A DNA stretch of 64,000 bases from a virus: positions 28,714-92,713 of IMG/VR virus record IMGVR_UViG_3300042691_029560; one strand, 5' to 3'. Positions 1 to 28,935 of this stretch are shown here, in pieces. The translations under genes and the position numbers were made by a program. Position 1 is the first letter of the stretch; the number at the start of each line of letters is the position of its first letter. The notes under the pieces are model-generated. The model saw only the letters and a program-made list of their open reading frames with translations. It was not told where the DNA came from and ran no database searches.

Positions 1-3000
1 AGTTCATTCGGCTGGGTTGAAGCTGTGATTGACTCTGAAGTAGAAGCAACGTGTTGCTTGTGCCACTTCTCTGGGATTAGATCTGTTTTGCCAAGAGCCT
101 TAGCACGACGCATAATGTGGCGACGAACCTTGTTTCTTTCAGATTCTTTTGCACGGCCGAATGCTTGAATAGCATTCTTCAGATCCTCTTCATTACGAAT
201 AGGATATGCTCCGTCTGGAAGAGCCTGACGCTTCTTTACGGCTGCATCGCGCTCTGCCTTGGTAATAGCAAAGTTGTCAACGTAACCATAAACCTTGTTT
301 GACAATTCAGCACTCCTGGCGGAAAGAACAGCTGCTCTTTCGCTACGGAATGCGTCAAACCTAGCTTTAGCTGCGGCAACCTGAGCATCTGGACCATAAA
401 GTTCAGAAGCTTTTAGTTCAGCTAGAGGGCGAGCACCAGCTGCAACAAGGGCCATTACAGCACCTGATGCGACACGGGCACGGGCGATTGGGAAGCCAGG
501 AACATTAACCTGGCAGACAGCTACAAGCTCAAGTGAGCCACGGATTGGACGCCAGTCACCTGAAGGAGCAGATGCACGAAGTGCACGTACTTGCTCAGGG
601 GTTGCGGATGGGCGAAGTCCACCGGCGACCCAGATACCATGTGCATCTTCTCCGGCATGTACGTCAGCAATTGCTGATGCAGTGTCGTCGTAGTGCTTAA
701 CGGCGTCTAGTGCGCTAGCTTCTAGTGGGGCATGGCCTCCCGCAAGCGTGAGTTGACCTACTGGTACATCCTTACCATTGGCAGTGCGAACAACGCCAGT
801 GTGGAAGTAAGAGTAGTTACTCTTGCTACGGGGAGGTTTGGTGCCGGCTACCAAACCGATATGATCAACGTTCCAAGCTGCAATGTGACCAAAGACTCTA
901 CCATCGTCAGTAACGGTGATAGGGGTAGGTTTACTTAGCTTAGGATTGTTAAACCATTCAGCAGGTGGCACAACCGGGATAGCTCCAGCAACTACAGCGC
1001 ATGCAACAAGCGATGCTGATTCTGGAGAATCCAGGTCTTCGGCATAAATTCCATCTTTTGGAATCATACTTTCCTCCTGGGGGTTTGCTTCCTCTAATAG
1101 GAAGATCTTGCATTCTTGGAACGCGGGCTTTGGCACCATAGTGATTGCCATTACCCGAGCTTTGTTGATAGTGAGTTTGTCTCCACCAACTTTTTTGTCG
1201 TCATCGATATCGATGTCGTTCTCAGTCTTAGCTTTAGAGTCCGATTTCTTTTTCTCTTCTTCAGCTTCAAACTGATCCATATCGGCTGATACGCCACGGA
1301 TAAATCCGTTGCGAACCAGACGTTCGGCTTCACGCCCGTACTCGCCGGTATCAAATACGCCAAACGCGTTTCCAATACCTTCTTCTGTACGCTCCATTCG
1401 GTCAATACGACCGACTACGACGGACCCATTGTGTCCATCTGAAGTTCTAACTTGCCACAGCAAAGGAAGTGGCAGCTCACGCATAGTTATAGAACCTTTA
1501 CGGAAAGTACGCCCGTCTCCAGTCTCTTTTCCTTCAGGAATAACTAGCGGAATTCTAAATGATGACCCACTTCCGCCCGCTACTAAAGGAGCAGCCGCAA
1601 GAAGTCCAAGTCTTTGTTTAGCGTTGTTTGATCGGGCTAAAAGTTCTAACGAGTTTATAACCATCTCGCTTGATTTAATGACATCGCTACTAAACATAGC
1701 TTTGTTACCGCCACGGCCTTTTCTACCATACATCTCTCTATGACGCTTGTCTCCGGTCCACATGCCAGTCATTTCTTTGTGGCGTAGAGCACAGTAACCT
1801 TTAGCACGTGGGCCTAGGTATTTTTCAAGTTGTCTTACGCAACGAGTCCAGTCACCCTTGGTGTTCCATCTAATCTTTAGACCACCCTTACCAACAGTCC
1901 AGTAGCGGCGTAATTCTTCTGCGTTACCACGGTTGCGATCTAAGCCACCGGCTGCAACAAGAATTTCTTCTCTAGGACCCCAAAGAACCATCATCTCGTA
2001 TTGAAGATACGCTGCAGAGGCAGTGATTCCATCTACTTGCTTTAGAACATCATTTAAAGTTGCGGAATCAAGTGGGACTACAGGTGGTGGAGTTGCTGAC
2101 TTAAGATCAGAAAGAGTTTTTTCGTCACGAACCCACTTCTTATCTAAACGACGGTAAATCATAGGAGCCGTAGACGTTGAGCTAGCTGGCACCATACTTA
2201 CAAGATCTAGCACAGCCTGAGGGTCGTCCGGAGCAACAATAGCAAAATATAGAGGCTGAACGTCAGAAGTTTCAGGAGTTAGCTGGACTGGCTTTCCTGG
2301 ATCTTTTGGGGTTGGACTACTTTTAGGTGCGCCTTCTGGCTTAGCCTCGTCTTTTTGAGTTTCTGTTACCGCATCAGTTGCAGGCTTTTGAGCTTCAGCT
2401 ATTTCAGCTGGAGTATTAGGTGCTGCAACCATTGCAGAAGCAACAACAGGAGATGCCCAGTTATTGTCAGTCTCTGGTTGCATCTCATCGCGTTGTTTTG
2501 AAGCACGCCACTTTTTTAGAAGCGGGTGATCATAAGATTCTATTCGCTCTTCTTTTTCATCTCCAGCACTTGTCATAGGAGTTTTGTAGTCTCCTGGAGA
2601 ATAAGAAGCACGTTGGCTTTGTACCCAAGCCGGGAAGTCATAAAGAACTTGGTGTAGATCTTCCTTAGTCATTGCAGGAAGTGTGCCAGAAATTCTAGCG
2701 TTTGGTCTATCTATTGGAGTACGAGGTTCACCAAGAATTCCAGAAGTATCTAGGGGACCTTCAAGTATTTCTTGTGGAGGTAGCCCAGATTCGGCTCTCT
2801 TTCTTTGCTCTTCTAGACTAATTCCCCCAGGCTTACCTTTGGAAGCTTCAGCACCCTGAGGTGTTGCACCTTGCTGTCCTGGTGCAACACTTTGCTTTCC
2901 AGCAGTAGTTTTTCCAGTATTGCCTTTGCTACCAAATCTTCCACCAGCAGCCCTAGGTTGTTTTGCAACATTTGCCGAACGTTCTTTTGAAGTATAGCCA

Positions 3001-4236: not shown

Positions 4237-7200
4237 TTACTCCTCATCTTTGGATTCATCAGTAGATTTTTGAACAGCGTTTCCAATACTATATCCGTCC
4301 AGAGGGCTCCAGTCTCCGAGCTCTGTCCCAAGAATATAGTCTACAGCTTTTTGAGCCTGGCTAGTTGCGCTAATGATCTCATCTGGGTTAGATTTTAGGT
4401 GCTTTAGCCAACTTTGAACGTAAGCTGCACTATTATCAAATACTGCATCAACGCCAAACATATTACCTAGAAGAGCGGCTCCAATTTCAGCAATAAGTTC
4501 TTCTCTAGCTCTGGACTCTAGATCTGTTTCATAGTCTTTAGTTAGATCTGATCTATCTAAGCGATTTGGATGACCAGTGCTGTGTACCAGCTCATGGGCA
4601 ATGGTATCAAACAGATCTTCAGGAGATTCAAACTGCTCTAGATTAGGAAGGGTCACTTGGTCAGAGATAGTTCCCCAGCTTGGTGCTTGGTGAGCACCGC
4701 CAACTCCAACGTACTTGTGAGTGACGTTAGGTGCTTTTCCAGTTCTAGCGGCCATAGCTTTCTTGTATCTTTCAACAATAAACTCTTGTGCATCCAGTGG
4801 AGTCATCTTAGGAAGAGATTCTGTAGAAAGATCAGGCAAGTTTAGACCATCAATCTGTTCAGCATTGAATACTGCCATAGCTTTGAACATGGTGAATGAT
4901 CTAGTCTTATTTGGGTCTTTCTCATCCTTTTGGACTATACGCATAGGAACAAGAATGAATGTACCCTTCTCACCCTTACGGACTTGACCACCCATCTGCT
5001 CTGCCTGCTTATAGGTCATCCATCTAGGATCGCTGTACCCGTTTTCTTCTTGAGCAAATCTAAGTGCCATTGCGTTAACACCAGAGTAGATATGCTTAGA
5101 AGATGGGTTTCTAGGCAGACCCATACCAGCGTACTTTTCGCCTTCTTTATAAGGTTTACGCCAAGGAGTCTCGCCCTGCTTAATCTTTTCAAACAGGCCG
5201 GCCATAACTTTTTCTGTGGCAGTTTTGCTGTCAGAAACGACTTTCTTACCAGTACGACTCTTACCACCAGGCTTTTGAGCAAAGCCAGTTATTTCTGGGT
5301 TTTCATCAGATCCCGGGGTTCCAGGCGGATAAGCAGAAGGAGCATCCTCTGGTCTTAAGTTCGTGTCAGGGTTCCAGCTACGTGGGCCAGGATATCCTGG
5401 AACACCAGCCTGCTCCATCATGTCAACAGAGCTGTTAATCCATGGAGGAAGAACATCATTACCTAGTACAAAATCTACAGCTATCTCTGCTTCGGCCATA
5501 GCTTTAGTTATTTCAGCGTCACTTAAGCGGTGAGATTTTAGGTACTCAGCTGTTCTATTTGGATCATGGTTAATTCCTAGACGCTGTAGTAACAGCTGTG
5601 ATGCAATTTCAGCCACAGCTTCTTCCCTAGCTCTTTGCGGATCGGTAACACCTCTTCCAGCAAGATGGCCTTCTCTTCCAAGTCTACGTCTAGTTCCGCT
5701 AGCATGGGCAAGTTCGTGGAATAGACTGTATAGATAATCCTCCGGACTATCGTACTTACTTCTATCCGGAAGCCTAATTGATTCAACACCTTCACTTACA
5801 GACCAGAATGGAGTTATAGGTTTTCCTTTATTAGGTCCTTCTTTTGTCTCAATACCAATCAGATCTTCGTAGACCTTTAGTCTTCCAGATCCACCACGCT
5901 TCTTTTCAGCTTCAGCAAATCTACCAAGAACGAATTCCAAAGCCTGAGAAGCTGTCATTTTTTGCTGCTGCTTAGGGTTGTATGGCTCTAATCCATCCAT
6001 CTGAGCTGCGTTAAACACAGTCACAGGAGTCTGAACAAGTACACGTTCTCCGGTATCCTCGTTTTCAATAGTGCGGAATGTCATAATCCGAACACCCTGC
6101 TCACCATCACGTATCTTTGCGCCCATTTTTTTAGCCTGAGCTACAGACATCCATCTTGGATCTGTATATCCTCTCTCGGCTGCAGCTGCGGCAAGTGCGT
6201 GGTGGTTTATACCACTGTATTGGTGCTCTGAAGATGGGTTGAATGGCATGTTGCTAGGATTAACCGGAGCAGACATTGGGTCTTCAGCAGGATACTCAGA
6301 GTATGGTTTGTCGTAATCACCTGTACGATATGGCCTAGGGTTTTTAATACGCTCACGGAAAATGTCAAGCATCTTGGCTGCAGCTGATTTATTATCAGCT
6401 ACGGCTTTAGCTTTCTTTTCTTCAAAAGTTTTAGCTGGAACGGTTTCAGATGGAAGCGTTTGAGCAAAGCCATCTACATCTTCACCGCCCCTAATTTTGT
6501 CATCTTTTAGTGCAGCGTCTGCAGCATCTAAATTATCAGTAAAGTCTTTAGCAACCTTATCAACGGTAGGAGCTTCAATAGCTTTTGGAGTAGCTGGTTT
6601 CTTTGGCTTTAGATCTTCTGGGTGATTTTTCTTCCAACGATCTTTAGCAATTCTTGCAGCAAGTTTTGCTTTCTTAATTGCAGCAGATAGCTCAGAGATA
6701 GCAGCCATCTTCTCTTCAACGCCCTTAGACTTCTTCAAGTTGTCGATAGCTTTTTGTAGATCGGCTTTGACGTAACGCATGTTGTTTACGAATTCGCCGA
6801 CGTTGTTTACATCTTCACGAACCTTGGAGGTCTTACCCTTCCATTCGTCAAATAGACCTAGGGCGTTGCTTAGCGAAGCTATAGCCTCTAAAATACGGTG
6901 AGGACGCTTAGGTTGTTTTCCACCAAGCTGAGCAAATCCAGCTTCATCTACTCCAGCAGGAAGTATTTGAGTGTTTTTACCTGGAGTTTGTGCAAAACCT
7001 ACGTTATCTGACTTAGTGTTGTCAGGGGTCTCTACTAGGTCGAGCTCTACAGTTAAGTTTCCATTTGAATCTTCTTTAACTGAAGTAACCTTAAATTTTG
7101 AATTTCTTGGTAATATAACTTCATCTTCAGCGTATCTAGATAATGCAGACCCCATAGAATATCCGGTTAATTTAGATCCTTTAGGCGAAAGTGCATATGT

Positions 7201-9557
7201 TATTGATTTGCCAGTAAGTCGATTTCCGGTGAGTGCCTGTACAGGATTTACAAATAAATCAATCGAGTTTAAATCTGTAGAAGTTGACATAAAGCCAGGG
7301 TCAATAAATTCAGCTCCAGGGACTAAAGCCTTTTTAGCTTTTTCAAAGTCATCTAGTCCCCTACGAGATTCACCAAGTGTAACTACTTTTCCATCACTAA
7401 AAAACTCTCCTCTAAACAATCTAGAAGCTATTAGGGGATTTTTTGAAGTTAAAGAGTCTAGCCCACGGACTACAGATTCTTGATCTTTAGGAACAGGTGT
7501 ACCAGTCCTTAATGCTTTATTTATAGGTATATAAGCTGCACGAGTGCTATATTTTCTAGCAGCACTTGACTCATCTTTTGTAATAACATCTTTTGAAGAT
7601 AAGCCTTTAGACAGATCTGCTGGTGGAGTAAATGTAGATTTTCTAGCTTTAAGTTGTCGCCAATCAAAATCTCCGGACTTCATTTTAAAGAAATCGTTGT
7701 CAGATAGGAAATAGTATCCAGCCTGAATTACGTCAAACGTATCTGCATTTTCTTCATCTTCTTCATCAGCATCTTCATCAAAAATAGATTCGTTTAGACT
7801 AATACGATACAGTCCAGTGTTAGAGTCGGATGGATTTCCGGTTACTTGATCAAGAGTAATTCCTGTAAACTCTGCTTCATCACTTCCAAGAACTTCTTTA
7901 CCGGGTTCTGCATACCTGCTAGTTACTGATCTATTCAAATCCTGAAATCCTAGGGGAAGAGTGTCACTGTCAATAGACACATTAAACTTAGTCTTGTCCC
8001 CACGTTTTAAAGTTTTATTTTCCAGTGTTACTGTTCTGCTACCGTCTGAAGACTCTACAGACTTTCTAGAAGACTCTAATTTTTTATCTTCTTCGGCAGC
8101 TTGCTCACGTAGTTTTTGTCGTAAATCCTCTCTAGCTGCTTGTAATTTTAAAAATTTTGAACTATTTGTATATTCTCTAGTGTCTTCATAAGACACGTAA
8201 TCATCAATTTCAGCACCTTCAAAAGGTTTTTTTGGATCAGCATTAAGCCTTTTTTCTAAAGATTCTTTAGTTACAATTGCATATTCCGGAGCTATTCGCT
8301 CTGCTTCAACAGCTTCCCACCCAATATCATCTCCCTCTTGCATCTCGTATTCTTCTTTAGACAATCCATTTTCATCTAATTCAACAGGGTAGTCGTTATC
8401 TTTAAATTCTTCGGTTCTAAAAATAAATTTATCTTTGTCTTCTTCTTTACCAGTGATGTCAAATAAAGTTACTCCAGTGTACCTAGATGGAAATCTTTCT
8501 AGCCTAGGTTCTTCACCAAAACCAATATCGTCACCGAGATAGTCTGTGAATCCAGTGACTCCCTCAAAATGTTTTTCATAATCATCTAGCCCGGTGCCCG
8601 ACTCATAAGATCTGTCAAGTGGATACCAATCTCCTGGATTAATTTTGTTTCCGGAAGATAGAGTTATAGGAGTGTCTCCAAATACATCTCCCTGTACCTT
8701 GTTAAATCCAGGTTTTCTAGGTTTAGAAAATTTTCCTTCTTTTTGAGCAAAGCCGTCGTAATCAACGGTGTCGAACTCAGCGGTTCTAAGCATGATTTGA
8801 CGTTCAGCTTCTTTAAAAGCTTCACTTGCGTCAATTCCAAGATCTACTTTTTCTTTAGGCTTGTCGCTAAAAGTAGCGGTAAATCTGCCACCCTTTTCCA
8901 AAATGTCGGTGACTAGACCGTTTTCCTCACGAGTCCAACGACTAATGTCTTTTTTAGCGTCTTTCTCTGTAGTAGCATCTACAAACTTACGTTCCGCCGC
9001 TGTTTCATTGAACTTGCCGGCTCTTTCAGATCCAGCTGCTTGTGCAAATCCTTCAGAGTCTTCTGGAAGAAGCTCAGAATCAAAAAATACATCTCTCGGC
9101 AAGATAGTATCTTGATTTTCAGCAATTTTATCTAGCTTTTCTCTAGGAGCTACATATTTTCCGACTCTTCGAAGTTGAGTCTCATTTCCCGGAGAATCTT
9201 GAGAATTTACAATTCTTACTGGGACATACTCGACTCCGGCTTTACGAGCCGCGGCTAGTCTATGGTTACCTTCAGTAATAAATGCTTTACCATTTTTAGG
9301 GTTGAGCACTACTATAATTGGCTCTTTAAAGCCGATGCCTTCTTCTAGATCTTTGGCAATGCTGTCTACCGTACTCTGCTCACGAATCTCATTACCTTCA
9401 GCTCCAATTAGAGCTTTGGTATTTACGTACTGAACTACCGATTTTCCATCAGATTTATAATCTTGTAGGTTAGGATTATACTTTTTACTGTATTCAGCAT
9501 CTACCTCTGTACTAGGTGTCTGTGAGAACCCACGGTCCCCCTTTTCGGGGGTTACGC
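4237..9557 (-). CDS. Polyvalent-protein-like frame: ParB/Srx-like domain, ADP-ribosyltransferase, two ArdC-like (ssDNA-binding + HExxH) domains; probably expressed as a -1 frameshift extension of 9552-19577
   Basis: Frame stays open ~250 nt upstream of the tracked GTG 9309, with no ATG, to the slippery site. ParB motif GFKEPIIV..ITEGNHRLAAA; ART motifs LFRG / GFMSTS / EDEVILPRNSKF; ArdC motifs YSGxN..WM(S/T)xxQA..GE(Q/K)G..VFNAxQ with HELAH and HELVH. Confidence 0.85.
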
Positions 9558-9564
9558 TTTTGGG
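9537..9564 (-). other. Programmed -1 ribosomal frameshift signal
   Basis: In-frame X XXY YYZ heptamer C CCA AAA (9564-9558), spacer GCGTAA containing the 0-frame stop, then hairpin CCCCC-GAAAA-GGGGG (9551-9537); the downstream ORF is in the -1 frame. Confidence 0.85.
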
Positions 9565-12500
9565 GAGTTCGCACCTCTACGCTTTAGAGTATCAATAAGT
9601 CTTTGAATCTCGTCAGCAGACTTGCTGTTCAGGTTCGTGATTCCAAGCTTACGCTTCTCTGCAGAAGTCAGACCAAGAGAGTTAGCCAGATCCTTGACAC
9701 GCTTAAGTTGTCTAGGAGTTGGCTTACCGGTGTCGACGCCAGCCTTAGGGTTTAGAGCCCTAAGTTGTCCAAGCATTGCACCCATCTGAGCCTTAGTCAA
9801 GTTTTTACTTGATAGGGCATCTTGAATTGCAGTAGCTAGTTCTGGATCGATGCCGTCTCTGTTGCCACCAAGTTCCTTGAGGTAGTCATACTGAGCGTCA
9901 GTAGCTGGCTCACCCATCTTAGGTGATACAACTGCGTTGCCAGGTTCTTGAGAAAAGCCGTCAGAATCATCATTAACATCATCATAATAACCTCGGCTGT
10001 TTTCAGCATCTTCATCAACAAGATCGCTGTTGTAGTAGTCTAGCTTTTCATTAGCAAATGCTAGGGCTTCTTCTTTAGAACCAAAAGTCTGAGAACCTTC
10101 GTCATATTGGAATTCTGCATCTTTATCCATGTATTGATACGAGTGATCTACTTCCCACTCACCGTCGCCCTTATACCAGACCTCAATCTGACTGTCAGAG
10201 TAAGGGTCTGTAGTATAACCACCATCGCTGTTTTGACTTAGTTTGTCATCCCTAACTGGAGTGCCTTTTCTGCCAGGTTCTTGGGCGAAACCACCCTGAT
10301 CTTTCTTACGGTTTTTCTTATCTAGAATTCTCTGAGCACGATCTACAAAATCACTAAGAGCATATCTAAACTCATCTGATACTCTAGCATCACCAAAGTC
10401 CTCATAAAGCCTTGCCATTCTATCGATAAACTCTTGCTCAGTACCATTTTCAATAGCTGTTGAAAGTTCTTTCTCTAGATTTGCTTCCGAGAAGTTTTGA
10501 GATAGATTTGAGTTATAGTCAGCTGCTTCGTTAGCTGCCCACTCAATCGCGTCATCGCGGTCATCAAACTCTTGCCTATCATACGCAGAATCTCCGCTAT
10601 CAGAACCATAAGTAATTCTAGCTTCGTACTTACCATTCTCGTTTGGCTCATTGTCAATGTTGATTTCTGCTCCACCGCTTCTGTAGTCTCCCCAGTAACC
10701 ATCATCTGCAGCTTCTGCAATCTTATCGGCATCTGTTGAATAGTAAATTTCTCTAGCAGTAGCCATTTCATCTTCAACGTCAGATAGATCTAAGTTTCTT
10801 AAATCGTCAGGATCTCTAAGAGCTGCTCGTATTCCAGCACGATCTTCAATTCTCTTAATAACTTGATCTCTCAGGTTATCGAGCTCGTCTGCCAAACTAG
10901 AGTCACTAGAATTATCTCTTCTAAGTCTAGATACAACATCTTGAAGATCGGAAGCAAACATGTAAGACTGCTCTACAGCCCAGTCTTTACCATATTTTTT
11001 ATTGTCTGGATTGTCTGGATCTGACTCTGCTAACATTTCTCTCAAGTTGTCGCCGTCTAACATAAGGAAAGTGTCCTCATTTGCAGCGTCAAGTCTTCTT
11101 GCAAGCTCATCAATTCGCTCACCCTTTAGAGAGTTGTAGTAAGCATCCATCTCACCAGCAACTTCGGCAGGTCCGCTTTCTGTAAAGTCGTCACCAGCAC
11201 GGTCGCGGTTGAACTGCTCTTCTCCAGGAATGCCTGGCTCCTGAGCAAAGCCGATAGTCTCTGGACGATCCTTCTTTCTACGAAGCTTGTCGTTTAGAGC
11301 ATCTACTTCAGCACGGTTCATGTTTGGTAGGTTGTCTAGGATGTCCTTGACTTCTTCTGGAGTTAGGTCCTTGGTCACAAGCTTGCTGTTCAATGACTGA
11401 AGAGCACGGTCGCTTGGCTTGTTAGGGTCGACGCCCGGTTTGAACGGAGCATCACGCATAGGGCCAATAAGTGCACTCATCTGTGCCTTAGTTAGGTTCT
11501 TGTTCGCAAGAGCTTCTGTAATTGCCTGAGCAGTTAGGTCGTCAGCTGGAACTCTTTCATCAGCGTACTCTTGTAGAAGAGCATACTGAGCAGGAGTTGC
11601 AGGTTCCATCTGCTTAGCAGACAAACCTCCAGTTTTTTCCTTGTTTTGCTTCTTATTGCCGTCAGCAATCTGCTTACGTAGCCATTTCTCGGCTGCCTCT
11701 GGACTATTGAATGATTTACTAGTAGTATTTCCTAGTCCATTTCTATTTTCAGGATTAGCGTATTTAGCAAACCATCTGTTAGATTCTGTACCGTCTTCAT
11801 TTTTATAGACGCCATACCTAACGTCAGATATGTTACCGTTGGCATCTTTATAAACTACGCCTCCTACTTTATCGACAGACTTAAGATCTAAAGCGTTTGG
11901 GTCCTCTTCTAATAGATCGGAACCGGTTCCTGGTTCTTGGGCGAATCCACCGCTCTTATCTTCACGGAAGAAGTCATAGTCTTCACCATTGTTTAGACCA
12001 ATCGTATCAAACCATTCACCAGGTCCAAAGCCTGATTCTTTGTCTGCTTCTAGGAATAGCTTATAAGCTAGTACTTCACTATGGTAGCGACTAGGTTTTT
12101 CAATAGCTCCCTTAATCTCTCTACCGTTGTACCCATTAGCAACTGCCATATCAGCAATTAAATTGTAATAGCTGTATGGATCACTTTCGGCGAGACCATT
12201 TAGATAATCATCGTTGTAGCTCATAGCATTTTGTACTAGATCGCTAAGTTCTTCATTGTCATAGTCACCAGCAAGTTCAGAAAGTTTTTCCGAATCAAAA
12301 TAACCATCGTCTTCTGCGCCAAGAGCACTTAAAATTTTATTAGCATCTTCTTCGCTCTTTGAGAAAAGATCTTTGTTAATTTTATCTTGCTCGTCCCAGG
12401 CATTCTGTACGTCAGATGCAAGGCCGGCAAGTTCACCATCTTGAGGAAGGTACTTAAATTGCTTAGATCTTGCAGCCCAACCAAATTGAGCTTTTTGTTG

Positions 12501-15500
12501 TTGAAGATCTCGGATTTCATCTCTATTATCAGATTTATCAATTTTACCCTGAAGAATATCTTCAGCTTCTTTGACAGCTCGATTTACTTTATCACGTATT
12601 GGCTTATTAGCTGCTTTAGGAGTAAAATCAATTCTACCCTTTGGATAGTTTGTCCAAGCATAGTTTTTAGCTGGCTCTTCGCCACCAGGACGTTGAGCAA
12701 AGCCTTCACCTTCAGAGCCAAAACCAATCTCGTTTAGCCAGTGATCATTGTTCTGATCCTCAGCCCAGGTGTTCATTTCTGCGTCAAGAACATAGTCATG
12801 ATAGTTATAAGGTTTCTCAATCATACGTTTGAACTCAGATGGGCTTGCATTTATAGCTTCAGCAGCATTCGCAATTTTGTAGAAGTATTCAGCAGGATTT
12901 GTACGAGCTAAATTGTCTAGGTAGTTTTCATTTAGCTCTTTAATTTCCTGAGCAGCTTCGTAGTCTTCATCATCCTCGTCTAGACCGCCGTCTTCAATAA
13001 AAGCATACTTCTCAACAAGTCTCTTAGCTAGAGCTTTGTTCTTTGCTCTAACTTCTGGGCTTGGTCCGTTTCCAGGTGCTTGACCAAAGCCTCCGTAATC
13101 AAGATCGGCAGCGTAATCCTCTGCGTCCTGATTTACTTCCATACTGTTGTAGTAATTAAGTTTTTCGTTAGCAAATGCTAGAGCTTCTCCCTTAGTGTCG
13201 AAGGTCTTAGAGCCTTCGTCAAACGGCAACTCTCCTCTAGATTTGTCCATGTGAATGAACTGGTGGTTTACTTCCCACTTACCGTCATTGGTAGGGTTGA
13301 CTTCAATTTGACCTGGCTCACCAAAAGTAGTGCTAAGAGAACCGTCGTCACTCGTAATCAATTTGGAATTGTTTATAGGAGTATATTTTCTGCCAGGTTC
13401 TTGAGCGAAACCTCCGGACTCAAGATCAGCGGCGGCATCTTCTGCATCTGAGAATACCTTGTCACCGTTGTAGTAGTCTAGTTTTTCGTTAGCAAATACA
13501 AGAGCTTGCTTTATAGAATCAAACTTCTGAGAACCTTCGTCAAATGCAAACTCATTTCCAGAGCGTGCCATGTGGTTGTACGCGTGGCTTACTTCCCATT
13601 TACCGTCATCAGTAGGGTTGACTTCAATTTGCTTGTTAGAAGTTGGACTAGTACTGTAACCACGATTGCTAGTTGGCTGTAACACTTCTGGTTTGCCAGT
13701 TGCTTGAGCGAAGCCAGCTGCAGGAGATTCTCCGTTAGCGTCTCTAAGAGCTCGATCAATAGCCTCAACAGCGTCTTGTTTAGCCTTAAGTGGGTCACCA
13801 AACCCTAAGTTAGCTTTATCAATGTCTTCGATTGCTTGTCTAATTTCATCTTCGTAGTCTGGAACAATGTCTACAGGCTTACCATCGAAGGTGACCACAA
13901 GGAAATTACCGTCAGGATCTCCTTCTACGACTACCTTTAGGCGTCCGTCTGCAGAAGTAAAGTTTCCGCTTCTATCCCAGAGATCAGGATTGTCAGCTGC
14001 CTTACGGTCAATCTTAGGAGTGTAGCTAATTGAAAGATCTGCACTCTTGCCAACCTCAGCAAGAAGCTTGCCCATCTCGCCTTTGGTTAGGGCCTTGTTA
14101 GCAACGGCTTCTTCAACCATATCGCGAACGTCGGTTGGAAGTTTTTCACCTTGGTTATCTAAGATACCCTGAAGCTTGTTGTACTGTAGGGAGCTAGCTG
14201 GGTCTTTAGTCCAGGCTGGTGGCTCGTCGCCAGGTTCTTGAGCAAAACCGCCCATCTCGTCTGGAGACTTTCTAGCGTTTCCTTCAAGTTCTGAGAACAG
14301 ACGTTCGCCGTCTTCAAGTGCCTTGTCTAGATTATCTGTAGGTTCACCCTGGCCCATAATTTCACCATTACGGTTGTAGGCGATAGGGGTAATCATACCC
14401 TTGTCTTTTTCTAGACGTACAATTCCACCATCTTCTGTTTCTGCAGTAGCAGCAAAGAAAATATCACTATCTGGATATAGAAGGAATTTTCCGCGTTTAT
14501 TTGAAGACTCACCAGGCTTTTGATCAAATCCACCGGTTTGCTTCTTTAGGAATTTGTCAACTAAAACACCTACGTCTTTTGCTAGGTCTGCTGAATCGTA
14601 GCCCCAACCAATGTAAGGAAGCTCACCAACCCATTCGCCATCGTAAGATACAGAAATACGAGATAGGTTTGTACCACCAAATCCCATGTCTGGTTCTCCA
14701 TCTGCCATTGACTCAAGAGTCAATCTTCCATCTGGAGACTTGTAGGTAGCGTCATTACCGCCTTCAGGATCTCCGAACCAGTGGCTTAGGTTGGCAATGT
14801 GAGCCTCGTCAACTCCACCAGCTTGGCCGGCTGATTGGGAGAATCCTTCGATATCATCGGTTCTTTCACCGTACTTGATATTCGGTCCGCCTCTAAGAAG
14901 TTCTTTAAGATCCGAAACAATTTCTTCTGCTTCTCTTTCAACACCTTCAGGCTCCATGTCTGGGTATCGAGAACTATCGTCAACTAAAACAAAATTCTGT
15001 ACGTAGCCAATTGGTTTTCCATCATAACTAACTTCCCAGTCTCCACCTTCTACATAGGCAGAAGCAGCTCCTTTATTGGTTTCATAGTCATAATCACCAG
15101 ATTTGTCTACATATTTTATTTCAAGTTTTCCGTCCTTAGACTTCCACTCGTCTCTAAAATCAAAACTACTGTCAAGTTCACCAGAATAGTCTTTGGCTAA
15201 GTTACGTCGCTTAGGACTGCTATTAAGGTGCTTTGAGATTACATTCTCAATTTCATCAGCATAGTCGTCAATATCCATGAGCTCGATTGGTTGAGAGTAT
15301 GGTCTATCGATGTATCTAACAGGCTGTCCATCTTCTAGATCTATAGTATATTTTTCCCCATCAACAGATACTTCTAGATAAGATGTATCGACTGCAGGAT
15401 CATCTGCATAATAGCCAGCATCAGCGTCTCGGACGTAAGTAATCTTAATTCTTCCATCTCTAGAAACCCAGGTACGGTCCTTAAATGCTTCGGCAGACCA

Positions 15501-18500
15501 GTTGGCGTCTTTAAATGCGTCTACTGGAAGCTTATATTTTAGAGGCTCATCTTCTCCAGGCGCTTGAGCAAAACCTTCAATGTCATCTTGACCAGGAAGA
15601 TCTGCTAGAGAAATGTCATTTGCAGCCTTTTCTGCTGCACCAATGCTCTTGAAGTTTGATGACGCACCTAGTTCGCCACCATCCTGAGAAATTGGAGTTA
15701 CGTCCCAGGTACCATCGCCCTTAGGTGTGTAACGCATCATCAAACCTTCAGAGTTTTTCTTCAATAGGTTTGGACTTGCGTCTTCCCAGCCGTTGGTGTC
15801 TGGCATACCCTTTAGACGAGTAATGAGATCTGAAGCTTCATCCTTGGTCATCTTTGGAAGACGCTTGCTTAGATCAGCGGCTTCTTTAGCAGGAAGACCC
15901 TTAGAAATTAGACCACGGCGGATAGACGCTAGTTGTCTATCTGAAGGTACGTTGGTGTCAACGGCCTTTCGCATCTCACCAATTACGGCACCAATTTCGC
16001 CCTTAGTTGCTTCTTTGTTTGCAAGAATATCTTGCATAGACTTACGAAGTTCTTCTGGAAGTTTGTCACCCTGCTTTTCTAGGATGTTAGCTACGAATCC
16101 ACGCTGGGCATCGGTTGCTGGGTCAGAAGATTTTCCACCCGGTTCTTGACTGAAACCAGGCATTTGATCATAACCTTCAAAGCCATCAACGTCATAGTAA
16201 TCCCGATCATTTGATTTAGCTTGAGCGTTACCAAAAGCTTCGTCAAGCGCACCTATTTTTCCGTCTTCACCTTCACCATAGTTTTTAGGGTCATAGCCAT
16301 CACTAAACTCGCGCTCTTTGTCACCACCAAATGGACTTTTAACGAGACTACCACCTACAACATCAACAGTACCGTCGGAATACTGAGTTATCTCAGCTGA
16401 ACCGGCGTCACCTTCGTAGAACCAAACACGTTTTCCTGCTGCTTTATCGGATTCAGACGTTATTTCTTTGAAGTCTTTTCCGTAAGCCTTAACAAGATCG
16501 TCAACGGTATTAATTTCTGGTTCATTGCCAGGTGCTTGATAGAAGCCATCTCTTTCCCAGTCTTCAGGACCCTCTGGTGGCTCTGGTGGATCGTAGTCAC
16601 TCTCTCCAGCACCAAATATACCTGCAATATCGTCCATGGAAGAGCCCAAAGGAAGTGACTCATAACTAGTGTCTACATCTTGACTAGGTGGCTCATCCCA
16701 GCCTCCAGGATTGTATTTACCGGCAGTATATTGAGTTAATTCGGCTGCTCCACCAGGATAAATTTCTAGTTCTGCGTACTTGTAGTTATCTTCACTACCT
16801 AATGTTAGAAATATCACACCATCATCATCAGGGAATACATCTCCTGAATACCCGTATTCCTCTGCAAGATTTTTAATAGCAGCTAACTCTTCATCAGAAT
16901 AAAAAGAACTCTCAGAAGACCCATTTTCATAGTCGTCATATTTTTTAAGTTGAGCAGCGATTACATCGTGGTACTTAGCGTATTCAGGGTCCTCTAGCAA
17001 AGATTTCATTGCTTCTGCATCTAAATCCTTGAAAGACGTAAATACTTTAGCTTTTAATCCACGGTTGTACTTAATTTGCTCAATTTTGGCCTCGCGAGCC
17101 TTTTTTACATCTGACTTAAGTGGTTCTAAGCCATCTTTTTCACGTTTTTTATTTTTTGGAAATGCAAAGATTCCTTCTATATCATTCTGGGATCTTAAGT
17201 TATAACCATACTCACTGCTTAAAACACCAACACCAATGGTGTCTCCACTGTAGTACCTTTTACCAGCATTTTCTCCTTCGGTAATATTTATTTCAAAATT
17301 ACTCGGGTTAGGATTATTTTCTTGTCCACTCCAAGGCGTATATACAATCTCGTGGCCATAAGCTGACCATTTTCTAATGCCTTTGGCAGCATCTTCGGGG
17401 GTGGTAACTTCTACTGCATCATACTTTTTTGCAAAATCGTCAAGATTAATATTCTCCCCACCAGGTGCTTGATCATAGCCATAAAAATCGCGATTGTCGC
17501 GATCCTCGTCGTATGTGTCTGGCTCATCATCAGAATTATCGTAGTTTTCATAACCCTCATCCATCAGTCCAGCTAAGTCGTCTAAGCTAGAACCGGCTGG
17601 AATACTATTTCCATCACTTCTAACGTCAGCATCTGCTGGGCTATCCCAGGATGCTGCATAACGCTTTGCAACATAAAAGTTTTCTAGGTCTGCGGATCCA
17701 TCTGCACGTACAATTAGCTCAGCCCATGCGTCTCCAGCGTCATCGCCTTTTACTAGAGATATATATGGTTCTTCTCCTAAATATTCACCTCTAGGTAAGC
17801 CGTAACCAAACTCATCCATTAATTTTTGAATATCCTCGAGTTCTTTATTTGTCCAGTACGGGCTATCAGCTTCCCCTGCTTCATATGCCTTTGCTTTTTC
17901 TAACTGCTTACTAGCATAATCATGATGTGCCGCATATTCAGGATTGTCGAGTACTGACTGGATCTGCTCAATAGATCCAGTATTAATTCCACGATATGCG
18001 CGAATTTCAGCTACATCTTTAGGGGATATTCTTTGAGCTTTTGATACGAGCTCTTCCGCATTTGCAATTGCACGATCTTTTAGTTCGGTGCTTTCATATG
18101 CTGCGTTTTTCTTGTTTTCCAGATTTTTTTGTAGTGCTTCTACGTCGCCAAATCGAACAGCTTTTTGTCGATCGTAATATGATTCAAAATTATTGTAGAA
18201 TTTAGGATCACCGTATTCAAAAACACCATAGTCGTACTCTTTCTCACCAGGAGCTTGCTCGAAGCCTTCATTATTTTCTAATAGATCCTTAGGAGATAGT
18301 TTTTTATTTCTGCCAGGTTCTTGAGCGAAGCCCTTAGCTGGCTGCTGTTTGCGTAGACGTGCTTTTGCTTTTGGAGCCTTACCCTTACCAGAGTCATTAT
18401 CTGCGGCAAGCTTTTGAAGGTTTGCCCATTCCTGAGCGTAGCCAACAAAATCTCCAAATTCATCTGACAAAGAAAGTACAGGTTTGTTTGAATCATATGA

Positions 18501-19577
18501 GCCATCAGGACCAGCACCAATAAATTTTGAGCCCGAAGGTGCTTGCTCGCCGGATGGAAGAGTTGAAACAGAGTAGCCGTCTGCAGACGTAAAGGTGCCA
18601 TCACCATTGTCAGTCCAACCAGTTGGAGCAGACTTGCGGTTTGCTAGAAGTTCTTGTAGTGGAATTGCGTAACGTGAGTTTTTAGAGTCTGCCTTAAATG
18701 CTGGAGCTTCTCCAGTTCTAAGAATAGCTTTTAGACCTTCTACCTTAGATGCAGGAACAGAATAGATACCTGATGGAAGATCGGCTCCTCCTCCAGAAAT
18801 TTCAACTTCAATCCTGTCGCTGTCTTGTGGGTTACCAGCAAACTTACCAACGAACGACTTAATCATGTCGCCAATCATGGCAAATATACGAGATCCACCA
18901 CCCATCTCAGCAAATCGACCCTTACGGTCACGACGTTGCAACTTGGCACGTGCAGAACGTGCTGCTGAAGAGTTATTTCCAGCGAATGGGTTTCCGATAC
19001 CAAAAGCAGCGGTAATTGCTTGAATCTTAATGTCTGCTGGAACAGAAGCAGTTAGTGCCTCTAGACGTGCAGCAGCGTAGATGCTCTTGCTACTTCTTGG
19101 CTGTTGAACAAATGCCTCAAAGACTGCTTTACGTACAGACTCGTCAGTGATGCGTGGGTCGTAGGAAACCCAAGCAGCATTACGGACGCGACGTGCAGAT
19201 GCAGTAATCGGGCCAACGGTTTTTGTTGAGTACGGGTGAGCACTAGGGAGTAGGTCCCTAAACTCTACTACCGGAGCTTTATTGGAAGCCGGACCGTCGA
19301 TAGCGTAGTCAACAAAATTGGTTACTTCACGCGCAGCGTGGAAGAAAATGTCTCGAGGGTCTTCGATGTCTAGTTTGCTTGCAATGTAACGATCTGTGTA
19401 GTTAAGAACGTCTTTTAGTGCTACTTGTCTTACCGAGGCAACTAACGCGTTTCTTTCAACAACGTAGTTTATAACGCCTCTCTTAAAGATCTGCTCACTC
19501 TCGGTGACAGTTATTTCTAGATCTTTTTCACTTAAGCTCTCTAGAGCAGCAACTAGGGGATTCAAATTTTCACTCAC
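9552..19577 (-). CDS. Giant acidic modular protein (3341 aa), probable internal head/ejection polyprotein
   Basis: Lies between portal/Dps and the protease; 18 G[FY]xQxPG-type motifs separate internally duplicated modules; N-terminal DLLPxxHP and RRDRKGRF motifs. Confidence 0.8.
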   Translation of the reverse strand: MSENLNPLVAALESLSEKDLEITVTESEQIFKRGVINYVVERNALVASVRQVALKDVLNYTDRYIASKLDIEDPRDIFFHAAREVTNFVDYAIDGPASNKAPVVEFRDLLPSAHPYSTKTVGPITASARRVRNAAWVSYDPRITDESVRKAVFEAFVQQPRSSKSIYAAARLEALTASVPADIKIQAITAAFGIGNPFAGNNSSAARSARAKLQRRDRKGRFAEMGGGSRIFAMIGDMIKSFVGKFAGNPQDSDRIEVEISGGGADLPSGIYSVPASKVEGLKAILRTGEAPAFKADSKNSRYAIPLQELLANRKSAPTGWTDNGDGTFTSADGYSVSTLPSGEQAPSGSKFIGAGPDGSYDSNKPVLSLSDEFGDFVGYAQEWANLQKLAADNDSGKGKAPKAKARLRKQQPAKGFAQEPGRNKKLSPKDLLENNEGFEQAPGEKEYDYGVFEYGDPKFYNNFESYYDRQKAVRFGDVEALQKNLENKKNAAYESTELKDRAIANAEELVSKAQRISPKDVAEIRAYRGINTGSIEQIQSVLDNPEYAAHHDYASKQLEKAKAYEAGEADSPYWTNKELEDIQKLMDEFGYGLPRGEYLGEEPYISLVKGDDAGDAWAELIVRADGSADLENFYVAKRYAASWDSPADADVRSDGNSIPAGSSLDDLAGLMDEGYENYDNSDDEPDTYDEDRDNRDFYGYDQAPGGENINLDDFAKKYDAVEVTTPEDAAKGIRKWSAYGHEIVYTPWSGQENNPNPSNFEINITEGENAGKRYYSGDTIGVGVLSSEYGYNLRSQNDIEGIFAFPKNKKREKDGLEPLKSDVKKAREAKIEQIKYNRGLKAKVFTSFKDLDAEAMKSLLEDPEYAKYHDVIAAQLKKYDDYENGSSESSFYSDEELAAIKNLAEEYGYSGDVFPDDDGVIFLTLGSEDNYKYAELEIYPGGAAELTQYTAGKYNPGGWDEPPSQDVDTSYESLPLGSSMDDIAGIFGAGESDYDPPEPPEGPEDWERDGFYQAPGNEPEINTVDDLVKAYGKDFKEITSESDKAAGKRVWFYEGDAGSAEITQYSDGTVDVVGGSLVKSPFGGDKEREFSDGYDPKNYGEGEDGKIGALDEAFGNAQAKSNDRDYYDVDGFEGYDQMPGFSQEPGGKSSDPATDAQRGFVANILEKQGDKLPEELRKSMQDILANKEATKGEIGAVIGEMRKAVDTNVPSDRQLASIRRGLISKGLPAKEAADLSKRLPKMTKDEASDLITRLKGMPDTNGWEDASPNLLKKNSEGLMMRYTPKGDGTWDVTPISQDGGELGASSNFKSIGAAEKAANDISLADLPGQDDIEGFAQAPGEDEPLKYKLPVDAFKDANWSAEAFKDRTWVSRDGRIKITYVRDADAGYYADDPAVDTSYLEVSVDGEKYTIDLEDGQPVRYIDRPYSQPIELMDIDDYADEIENVISKHLNSSPKRRNLAKDYSGELDSSFDFRDEWKSKDGKLEIKYVDKSGDYDYETNKGAASAYVEGGDWEVSYDGKPIGYVQNFVLVDDSSRYPDMEPEGVEREAEEIVSDLKELLRGGPNIKYGERTDDIEGFSQSAGQAGGVDEAHIANLSHWFGDPEGGNDATYKSPDGRLTLESMADGEPDMGFGGTNLSRISVSYDGEWVGELPYIGWGYDSADLAKDVGVLVDKFLKKQTGGFDQKPGESSNKRGKFLLYPDSDIFFAATAETEDGGIVRLEKDKGMITPIAYNRNGEIMGQGEPTDNLDKALEDGERLFSELEGNARKSPDEMGGFAQEPGDEPPAWTKDPASSLQYNKLQGILDNQGEKLPTDVRDMVEEAVANKALTKGEMGKLLAEVGKSADLSISYTPKIDRKAADNPDLWDRSGNFTSADGRLKVVVEGDPDGNFLVVTFDGKPVDIVPDYEDEIRQAIEDIDKANLGFGDPLKAKQDAVEAIDRALRDANGESPAAGFAQATGKPEVLQPTSNRGYSTSPTSNKQIEVNPTDDGKWEVSHAYNHMARSGNEFAFDEGSQKFDSIKQALVFANEKLDYYNGDKVFSDAEDAAADLESGGFAQEPGRKYTPINNSKLITSDDGSLSTTFGEPGQIEVNPTNDGKWEVNHQFIHMDKSRGELPFDEGSKTFDTKGEALAFANEKLNYYNSMEVNQDAEDYAADLDYGGFGQAPGNGPSPEVRAKNKALAKRLVEKYAFIEDGGLDEDDEDYEAAQEIKELNENYLDNLARTNPAEYFYKIANAAEAINASPSEFKRMIEKPYNYHDYVLDAEMNTWAEDQNNDHWLNEIGFGSEGEGFAQRPGGEEPAKNYAWTNYPKGRIDFTPKAANKPIRDKVNRAVKEAEDILQGKIDKSDNRDEIRDLQQQKAQFGWAARSKQFKYLPQDGELAGLASDVQNAWDEQDKINKDLFSKSEEDANKILSALGAEDDGYFDSEKLSELAGDYDNEELSDLVQNAMSYNDDYLNGLAESDPYSYYNLIADMAVANGYNGREIKGAIEKPSRYHSEVLAYKLFLEADKESGFGPGEWFDTIGLNNGEDYDFFREDKSGGFAQEPGTGSDLLEEDPNALDLKSVDKVGGVVYKDANGNISDVRYGVYKNEDGTESNRWFAKYANPENRNGLGNTTSKSFNSPEAAEKWLRKQIADGNKKQNKEKTGGLSAKQMEPATPAQYALLQEYADERVPADDLTAQAITEALANKNLTKAQMSALIGPMRDAPFKPGVDPNKPSDRALQSLNSKLVTKDLTPEEVKDILDNLPNMNRAEVDALNDKLRRKKDRPETIGFAQEPGIPGEEQFNRDRAGDDFTESGPAEVAGEMDAYYNSLKGERIDELARRLDAANEDTFLMLDGDNLREMLAESDPDNPDNKKYGKDWAVEQSYMFASDLQDVVSRLRRDNSSDSSLADELDNLRDQVIKRIEDRAGIRAALRDPDDLRNLDLSDVEDEMATAREIYYSTDADKIAEAADDGYWGDYRSGGAEINIDNEPNENGKYEARITYGSDSGDSAYDRQEFDDRDDAIEWAANEAADYNSNLSQNFSEANLEKELSTAIENGTEQEFIDRMARLYEDFGDARVSDEFRYALSDFVDRAQRILDKKNRKKDQGGFAQEPGRKGTPVRDDKLSQNSDGGYTTDPYSDSQIEVWYKGDGEWEVDHSYQYMDKDAEFQYDEGSQTFGSKEEALAFANEKLDYYNSDLVDEDAENSRGYYDDVNDDSDGFSQEPGNAVVSPKMGEPATDAQYDYLKELGGNRDGIDPELATAIQDALSSKNLTKAQMGAMLGQLRALNPKAGVDTGKPTPRQLKRVKDLANSLGLTSAEKRKLGITNLNSKSADEIQRLIDTLKRRGANSPKA

Positions 19578-28561: not shown

Positions 28562-28935
28562 ACTAATCTTCTTTCTTCGGGGAAACTACCCCAAGTAGAG
28601 TTTGTGGCTCCGGATCATTCTTCCGGGCCATACGATCAGCATACAGGAATAAGATCCCATAAGAGATCCCATTGATCAATAAGATCGATCCAATGATCGC
28701 AAGTAAAAACCATAAAAGTTCCATTAGTCCACCAAATCTTCATCAAAAGTAGAATACCAATCATCTTTCTCAGATCCGTATAGGTATAAAACCTTAGCAA
28801 TCGGCAGCAGCACAGCTACGGCCAGGATCAAAAAGATAAACACCCCTAGGGTGAATAAAAGGATTGTAAGGATCATAAAGAAATGATACCTTAGAAAAAA
28901 CCCCCCTAGTTTATGACTAAGGGGGTTATCTACTA

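Follow-up and report, generated by a model that had tools for sequence, protein, structure and literature searches.

Sequence evidence for a conserved -1 ribosomal frameshift signal predicted to join two giant reading frames of a phage

Results

Two giant frames and the signal at their junction

The window analysed here is the whole 64,000-nt stretch covering positions 28,714 to 92,713 of IMG/VR virus record IMGVR_UViG_3300042691_029560. On its minus strand two giant open reading frames (ORFs) meet in an overlap of only 25 nt. An earlier note on this DNA had proposed that a programmed -1 ribosomal frameshift at the slippery heptamer C CCA AAA, aided by a GC hairpin, fuses them into one protein of about 5113 residues. 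The features of the junction are as follows.

9552-19577, minus: ORF1, the zero frame; 3,341 residues, mostly acidic and modular, ending ...KRRGANSPKA-stop
9572-9577, minus: GAGGTG, resembling a Shine-Dalgarno (SD) sequence, 7 nt upstream of the heptamer
9558-9564, minus: slippery heptamer C CCA AAA, preceded by TC, in X XXY YYZ register
9552-9557, minus: 6-nt spacer GCG TAA, an Ala codon plus the zero-frame stop
9537-9551, minus: 3' hairpin CCCCC-GAAAA-GGGGG with a 5-bp GC stem and a 5-nt loop, the putative stimulator
4237-9564, minus: the -1 frame after the shift, CCC AAA AGC GTA...
9520-9531, minus: GFSQ linker in the -1 frame, 10 residues past the shift point
9172-9498, minus: ParB/Srx-fold domain, -1 frame residues ~27-135
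9307-9309, minus: GTG, codon 90, the first ATG, GTG or TTG of the -1 frame

The 3' end of ORF1 reads GGT GCG AAC TCC CCA AAA GCG TAA, the stop codon occupying 9554-9552. A TAG closes the -1 frame just before 9576; from there, 12 nt ahead of the heptamer, 1,779 codons stay open down to 4237. This frame reads ..PKSVTPEKGDRGFSQTPSTEV.. and after the shift continues for 1,773 residues from the Ser codon (AGC, 9558) to its stop. Joined to 3,340 residues of ORF1, this gives a predicted fusion of 5,113 residues with the junction ..GANSPK-SVTPEK.., and the predicted peptide spanning it is ..RRGANSPKSVTPE.. The hairpin, read in the -1 frame, encodes T-P-E-K-G, its arms coming from ACC CCC and AAG GGG. 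With the flanking GCG/CGU pairs included, the 28 nt that follow the heptamer reach -12.3 kcal/mol when folded. All that the earlier note had stated about the letters themselves (heptamer register, spacer, GC stem, position of GAGGTG, size of the fusion) was reproduced.

A Pfam search found no domain in ORF1. The -1 frame carries ParB/Srx, ADP-ribosyltransferase (ART), Tc-38/ArdC-like, ArdC-N and MPTase-PolyVal domains. ORF1 has 12 linkers of the form GF[AS]Q and the -1 frame a further 7 (4237-19577, minus); by a rough estimate about 0.1 would be expected by chance against the 19 seen, and relatives use GLDQ or GLGQ. These linkers are, from their sequence, candidate protease cut sites.

Over 11,674 codons of the window, the rate of in-register XXXYYYZ heptamers (Y = A or T) is 0.0015 per codon, so one inside the 25-nt overlap would be expected about 1% of the time. 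Folds as stable as that of the hairpin were found in 0.06-0.08% of ~5,100 in-register 28-nt windows across both giant ORFs (~15 kb of coding sequence). The stem is built from the rarest codons for Pro and Gly in these ORFs: CCC accounts for 2% of the Pro codons, GGG for 4% of those for Gly. The combination of in-register heptamer and hairpin is more than chance within the window.

Conservation of the cassette in diverged relatives

The same cassette was found in seven other IMG/VR phage contigs (L019-L023, L026 and L027), which together with the window form the eight-locus alignment used throughout. In 7/7 it reads NNC CCA AAA GCN TAG CCCCC-N5-GGGGG-CUG and stands at the end of the homologous gene downstream of a portal gene. 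An exact-pattern scan of 2.9 million viral contigs returned 7 matches, all of them in this gene context, and the gene order of the relatives is that seen around the giant gene of the window. Their proteins are 30-42% identical to the window in ORF1 and 42-44% in ORF2, the product of the -1 frame (no ORF2 match was obtained for the truncated L026).

Across the eight loci, 24 of the 28 cassette positions are invariant, including the heptamer and the stem. What varies is the upstream coding sequence, the third base of the Ala codon, the stop (TAA in the window, TAG elsewhere) and the five loop bases. The codon before CCA always ends in C, the amino acid it encodes varying between S, N and A. At each of the loci few 28-nt folds in the two-ORF region are as stable as the hairpin, and CCC and GGG are rare there as well. 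Since the cassette persists in lineages with only 30-44% protein identity, it must be old and maintained, and the alignment indicates that the signal is conserved beyond the needs of the protein sequence. The earlier note had named conservation of heptamer plus hairpin in related phages as a check on its proposal, and the seven contigs answer it.

The -1 ORF of the relatives has no start codon for 41-142 codons, and it is 767-770 codons long where the contig holds it whole. ArdC-N and MPTase-PolyVal domains were found in it in 3/3 relatives tested, and the entire ORF2 of L023 is 42% identical to the last ~780 residues of the -1 frame of the window. Compared with these relatives, the window has ~980 extra residues right after the cassette, among them the ParB/Srx domain and the ART block.

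Shorter relatives of the ORF1 end fell into twelve clusters (P0171-P0182), and 12/12 end in PKA followed by a stop. The endings comprise KRRGANSPKA, GLGQEAPKA, AKNPKA, EKNPKA, GQESPKA, GQDSPKA and FSSRPKA; Pro is preceded by S, N, A or R, and each of these can be encoded by an NNC codon. Protein P0004, which is 50-57% identical to the window over most of ORF1 and 91% in the last module, ends in an identical GANSPKA-stop; an ORF2 partner for it was looked for and not identified. P0004 and P0171-P0173 are 83-91% identical to the window in the last module, and all share the GANSPKA-stop ending.

The last ORF1 module itself (9555-9953, minus) comprises 133 residues after GFSQEPG, ..PATDAQYDYLKEL..LIDTLKRR. 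It is 79-91% identical in relatives as against 30-57% elsewhere, and the same helical module recurs inside ORF1.

Searches of the GenBank phage collection by DNA or protein gave no match, nor did metagenome contigs scanned by protein and by a degenerate junction pattern. Neither the exact junction of the window nor a pattern back-translated from KRRGANSPKA-stop had a match in viral contigs, a set reportedly without near-identical records.

Relatives with both frames in one ORF

Several relatives, in general 65-75% identical to the window proteins, carry both parts in a single protein. In L001 and L002 (IMG/VR) the two parts lie in one continuous ORF of 4,801 codons (4,795 residues as called); its identity with the window is 65% over the end of ORF1 and 66% over the beginning of the -1 frame. 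Homology of the zero frame to the fused relatives extends to ..LIDxLKRR, and that of the -1 frame starts at TPE(K), two codons past the heptamer, and runs on through VDAEYSKKYNPNL. Homology thus ends at KRR and resumes at TPEK, and the change of frame must fall within G-A-N-S-P-K.

The fused relatives have an extra module of ~165 residues at the site of the shift. In L001 (IMGVR_UViG_3300032334_001128, 2509-3000), a Gly-rich linker and this module (..KKKYPEGIYSMIDIAADPNSTQQ..) replace the cassette that occupies 9537-9575 of the window.

The start-less stretch and the ParB/Srx domain

The shift point is followed by 83 codons without ATG, GTG or TTG. The earlier note had likewise pointed to the lack of a stop and of an ATG in the part of the -1 frame that it quoted. 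The first start of any of the three kinds is the GTG at 9309, where gene callers begin a 1,690-residue 'ORF2' and which lies in a beta-strand of the ParB/Srx fold; the first near-cognate codon, ATT at codon 57, is also within that domain. The genes of this phage generally have a good SD, and none was found at GTG 9309. The GFSQ linker lies ahead of any start (relatives have GLDQ at the equivalent place), and the ParB/Srx domain straddles the first one, in agreement with the earlier claim that the -1 frame supplies a linker and the first half of the ParB domain.

A search of 1.84 billion cluster representatives gave 228 matches to -1 frame residues ~27-140, many of them stand-alone proteins of 150-190 residues. 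EGNHR is invariant in 20 aligned ParB/Srx sequences and fits the conserved (D/E)G-x-HR motif. Pfam ParB_N alone on the window protein was below threshold (E = 0.075); the ParB/Srx profile matched SbnI and ParB structures. In the AlphaFold model the predicted local distance difference test score is 79-96 over residues 31-120, with strands or helices at 48-52, 53-56, 67-78 and 87-92, and Foldseek matched the model to Noc, sulfiredoxin and ParB (probability 1.00). According to this model, the -1 frame encodes a complete ParB/Srx beta-alpha core, and initiation at GTG 9309 would remove beta1, alpha1, alpha2 and half of beta2. The start-less stretch is functional coding sequence.

No minus-strand promoter or terminator was predicted in 9000-10000. 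GAGGTG was considered as a ribosome binding site for the -1 frame and rejected, there being no start codon at a suitable distance. The hairpin was likewise considered as an intrinsic terminator and rejected: it has no U tract, and the terminator scan makes no call.

Alternative explanations

The case for two adjacent genes, with ORF2 made by initiation or by termination-reinitiation past the ORF1 stop and no trans-frame protein, begins with the gene callers, which annotate a separate 1,690-residue protein from GTG 9309. In addition, protein P0019 starts with Met inside the ~165-residue module that precedes ParB in the fused relatives, although this may be a contig or caller artefact. Independent synthesis would have to contend with the 83 start-less codons past the site, with an ATT that already lies in the domain, and with a GTG that lacks a good SD and would cut away half of a ParB/Srx fold that is modelled with confidence. 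The GFSQ linker and the TPEK homology precede any start, the relatives are start-less over 41-142 codons, and the conserved heptamer and hairpin would be left unexplained. We regard this explanation as very unlikely.

A second alternative is an unselected one-base deletion that split the gene. No indel is commoner than the loss of one base from a C or A run, which would by itself leave a run that looks slippery, and close relatives do have one continuous ORF. ORF2 would then be a decaying remnant, or be rescued by accidental low-level slippage. The near-identical variants P0013-P0018 are too similar to reveal purifying selection after the split. An unselected deletion is nevertheless highly improbable, given that the same cassette, stop offset and hairpin recur in lineages 30-44% identical, that ORF2 is open for ~770-1,773 codons wherever it is whole, and that the hairpin is built from rare codons. 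A comparison of P0018 with P0013 (~23 substitutions clustered at module borders, plus indels) had been considered as evidence of purifying selection on ORF2 since the split and was dropped, the differences being too few for power.

That the split is a sequencing or assembly error, and the true genome has a single continuous ORF, has a negligible probability. At least 12 contigs, assembled by JGI, NCBI, Logan and ENA, carry identical 3,341-residue and 1,690-residue proteins. The same GANSPKA-stop ending in P0004 and P0171-P0173, the same frame break in seven other contigs and homopolymer runs only 4 nt long also speak against it. No continuous allele of ~5,113 residues was found in a protein search spanning lengths of 1,837-5,847 residues. 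In one 36.6-kb JGI contig the 1,690-residue ORF2 is recorded as two proteins, P0016 and P0017 (774 and 847 residues), which points either to a further break in that copy or to faulty assembly of it.

Slippage of RNA polymerase on the C4A4 run, rather than of the ribosome, would yield the same fusion, and phage genes with long A runs use this route (PMC5009743). The runs here are only 4 C and 4 A, and a conserved in-register heptamer with a hairpin 6 nt away is a ribosomal signature; a transcriptional origin of the frame change is accordingly extremely improbable. Productive transcriptional slippage requires runs of about 8 or more identical bases.

Weighing of the frameshift reading

The junction has a heptamer in register, an overlapping start-less -1 ORF, an RNA structure 6 nt 3' of the heptamer (~5-9 nt expected) and conservation, the marks of a canonical -1 signal. 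In E. coli few -1 motifs are as efficient as heptamers of the form V_VV.A_AA.R, including C_CC.A_AA.A, and stimulators greatly raise their output (PMC4066793). The proposal of the earlier note finds its support in the cassette of the seven diverged relatives. It is further backed by the twelve PKA-stop clusters, by the fused single-ORF relatives, and by a GFSQ linker and half a ParB/Srx domain that come before any start. From these sequence comparisons it is very probable that C CCA AAA is a functional, conserved programmed -1 ribosomal frameshift signal joining both giant frames.

Several findings weigh against this reading. The two frames are fused into one ORF in P0003 and P0005-P0009; with several relatives fused, the split is dispensable and a fixed low ratio of the two products is not obligatory. 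The stem showed no variation and no compensatory changes in a covariation test over the eight loci. Because it never varies, covariation lends it no support, and the case for its conservation is made by a constant stem around a variable loop and by the choice of codons. That conservation could partly reflect the encoded T/A-P-x-x-G peptide and not RNA structure. The hairpin of the window is also weaker than those of the relatives (5 bp and -12.3 kcal/mol versus 8-11 bp and -16 to -23 kcal/mol) because TAA replaces TAG and ACC replaces CUG; given the weaker hairpin, the efficiency of the shift in the window may be lower than in the relatives. Finally, the upstream SD-like element is absent from the seven relatives, being present in the window only, so that the conserved upstream SD of a dnaX-type three-part signal is missing. 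The earlier note had listed GAGGTG alongside the signal. Its presence 7 nt upstream holds; a stimulatory role is not supported, with an SD-like 5-mer at comparable distance at 11% of positions as background and none in the relatives. Judged by its sequence distribution, GAGGTG is probably incidental and outside the conserved signal.

Proposed mechanism

Under the frameshift reading, most ribosomes on ORF1 would decode TCC CCA AAA GCG and terminate at TAA, giving the 3,341-residue acidic modular protein. A fraction would be held by the GC hairpin while tRNA-Pro occupies CCA in the P site and tRNA-Lys occupies AAA in the A site. Both tRNAs would slip by one base simultaneously, tRNA-Pro from CCA to CCC and tRNA-Lys from AAA to AAA, and decoding would resume at AGC GTA ACC CCC GAA AAG to produce the 5,113-residue fusion. 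The fusion would add a linker, the ParB/Srx domain, the ADP-ribosyltransferase and two ArdC-N/zincin-peptidase units. From the conserved signal we infer that slippage does occur, at some efficiency. Both products would be packaged in the capsid.

In all cases the site separates the acidic modular part from the ArdC/MPTase part, and this architecture makes it reasonable to suggest that the shift would set the ratio of acidic modules to enzymatic cargo and, as the earlier note had proposed, may hold the enzymatic cargo at the lower copy number. Fused relatives evidently manage the two at 1:1. A tentative extension, which we hold to be possible and rather doubtful, is that the cassette acts as a Gag-Pol-like dosing device for a protease-processed cargo polyprotein. 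Its efficiency would set how many packaged chains bear the zincin peptidase together with a tail of anti-defence enzymes (ParB/Srx, ART, ArdC), and that peptidase, or a head protease, would cut the ~19 GF[AS]Q linkers. If this is true, the fused lineages (4,801-codon ORF) and the insertions after the cassette (ParB and ART in the window) would be natural experiments in retuning the dose.

Genomic setting

The other features of the giant gene and its neighbours in the window are listed below.

7039-7590, minus: ADP-ribosyltransferase domain (PF03496; ADPrib_exo_Tox), within a variable block of ~594 residues
4357-5220, minus: C-terminal unit of ArdC-N (4867-5220) and MPTase-PolyVal (4357-4674), from Pfam
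27168-25756, minus: terminase, placing the giant gene in a head-module context
22556-20796, minus: portal, upstream of the giant gene
20786-19668, minus: DNA-binding protein, between portal and ORF1
4004-3, minus: large MuF/portal-like and protease-like gene, following the -1 ORF

The conserved core of ORF2 (4357-6630, minus; residues ~982-1762) consists of two tandem units, each ArdC-N-like with an HExxH zincin peptidase. Their zincin motifs are FHELAHASG and AHELVHSTG, and the first unit is degenerate, scoring only as Tc-38 in Pfam. The ~594-residue block bearing the ART (6952-8733, minus) is missing from P0018, which is otherwise ~95-98% identical, and is also missing from P0019 and from the fused relative P0003. 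Judging from these sequences, the block seems to be a cargo module whose gain or loss is recent.

Polyvalent proteins of phages and conjugative elements combine many effector domains in one polypeptide (Iyer et al. 2017, PMC5512222). Their genes lie beside portal and terminase genes, and the products are predicted to be packaged and injected (PMC5512222). The giant gene has several conflict-related domains with a C-terminal MPTase (Pfam ADPrib_exo_Tox, Tc-38, ArdcN and MPTase-PolyVal) and is located among portal, terminase and head genes. That the frameshift site belongs to one giant head-module cargo gene of this polyvalent kind is the best explanation of these observations. From the gene context we infer that the giant proteins would be packaged in the virion and delivered to the host.

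Discussion

If the site works, what gene callers list as two 'genes' is one protein of 5,113 residues whose ParB/Srx domain they halve, and metagenome catalogues would carry the same mis-annotation for all members of this phage family. The cassette C CCA AAA GCN TAR CCCCC-N5-GGGGG is short and almost invariant, and thus usable both as a search key and as a compact object for frameshift tests. Frameshifted and fused relatives, standing side by side, offer a direct route to asking whether the dose of injected effectors matters.

In the paper collection searched, none was found that links polyvalent proteins with ribosomal frameshifting in phages, or frameshifting with ArdC and phage virions. Nor was a report found of -1 frameshifting in giant polyvalent cargo proteins, which are thought to be injected against host defences. 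The proteins described by Iyer et al. resemble the giant gene in having ParB-like, ART, ArdC-N and MPTase domains in one polypeptide near portal and terminase, but that paper never mentions 'frameshift' (PMC5512222), and expression through recoding is the new element here.

Programmed -1 frameshifting is familiar from phage tail chaperones and capsid decoration. In Lactobacillus phage A2, the shift reportedly takes place at the same C CCA AAA with a downstream stem-loop. The earlier note had cited A2 as a precedent for -1 shifts in structural genes, and this is borne out by a review that covers such shifts in phage head and tail genes, A2 included (PMC5009743). The A2 head (gp5A/gp5B) and tail proteins and gene 10A/10B of phages T3 and T7 resemble the window in having a -1 shift near the end of a virion-module gene, with a short major product and a C-terminally extended minor one (here predicted). 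They differ in that their extensions are of tens to ~100 residues, often Ig-like decoration, in capsid or tail shell genes, whereas the window would add 1,773 residues of enzymatic domains to a 3,340-residue body in a cargo gene.

The G/GT tail assembly chaperone of phage lambda is likewise a conserved -1 shift in a morphogenesis operon, where it fixes the short/long ratio, but it belongs to another class and size of gene than the giant gene of the window. A G/GT-like layout is present in the same 92.7-kb record, outside the window: a 108-residue ORF and a -1 ORF overlapping by 34 nt (G000:C1:20193-20956, minus), just before a 1,569-residue gene that is probably the tape measure. No canonical X XXY YYZ heptamer was found in that overlap (..GAC CGC CCG ATA GAG CGG CCA TAG), and the pair was dropped as an internal control for heptamer type.

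E. coli dnaX tau/gamma and the IS3/IS911 OrfAB share with the window an X XXA AAR heptamer, a shift-prone tRNA-Lys and a 3' stem-loop a few nt on (PMC4066793). The dnaX signal differs in requiring an upstream SD, while the SD-like element of the window is not conserved, and its shift truncates the protein where that of the window would extend it. A parallel in functional logic may be drawn with retroviral Gag-Pol and coronavirus 1a/1ab, in which an abundant upstream part stops and a -1 shift adds an enzymatic part, including a peptidase, to a minority of chains. The window differs from these in coming from a double-stranded DNA tailed phage and in having a simple hairpin, not a pseudoknot; that its GFxQ linkers are sites of proteolytic processing is conjecture. 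Set among these systems, the conserved -1 cassette is a known kind of signal in a new gene class, with an unusually large predicted product.

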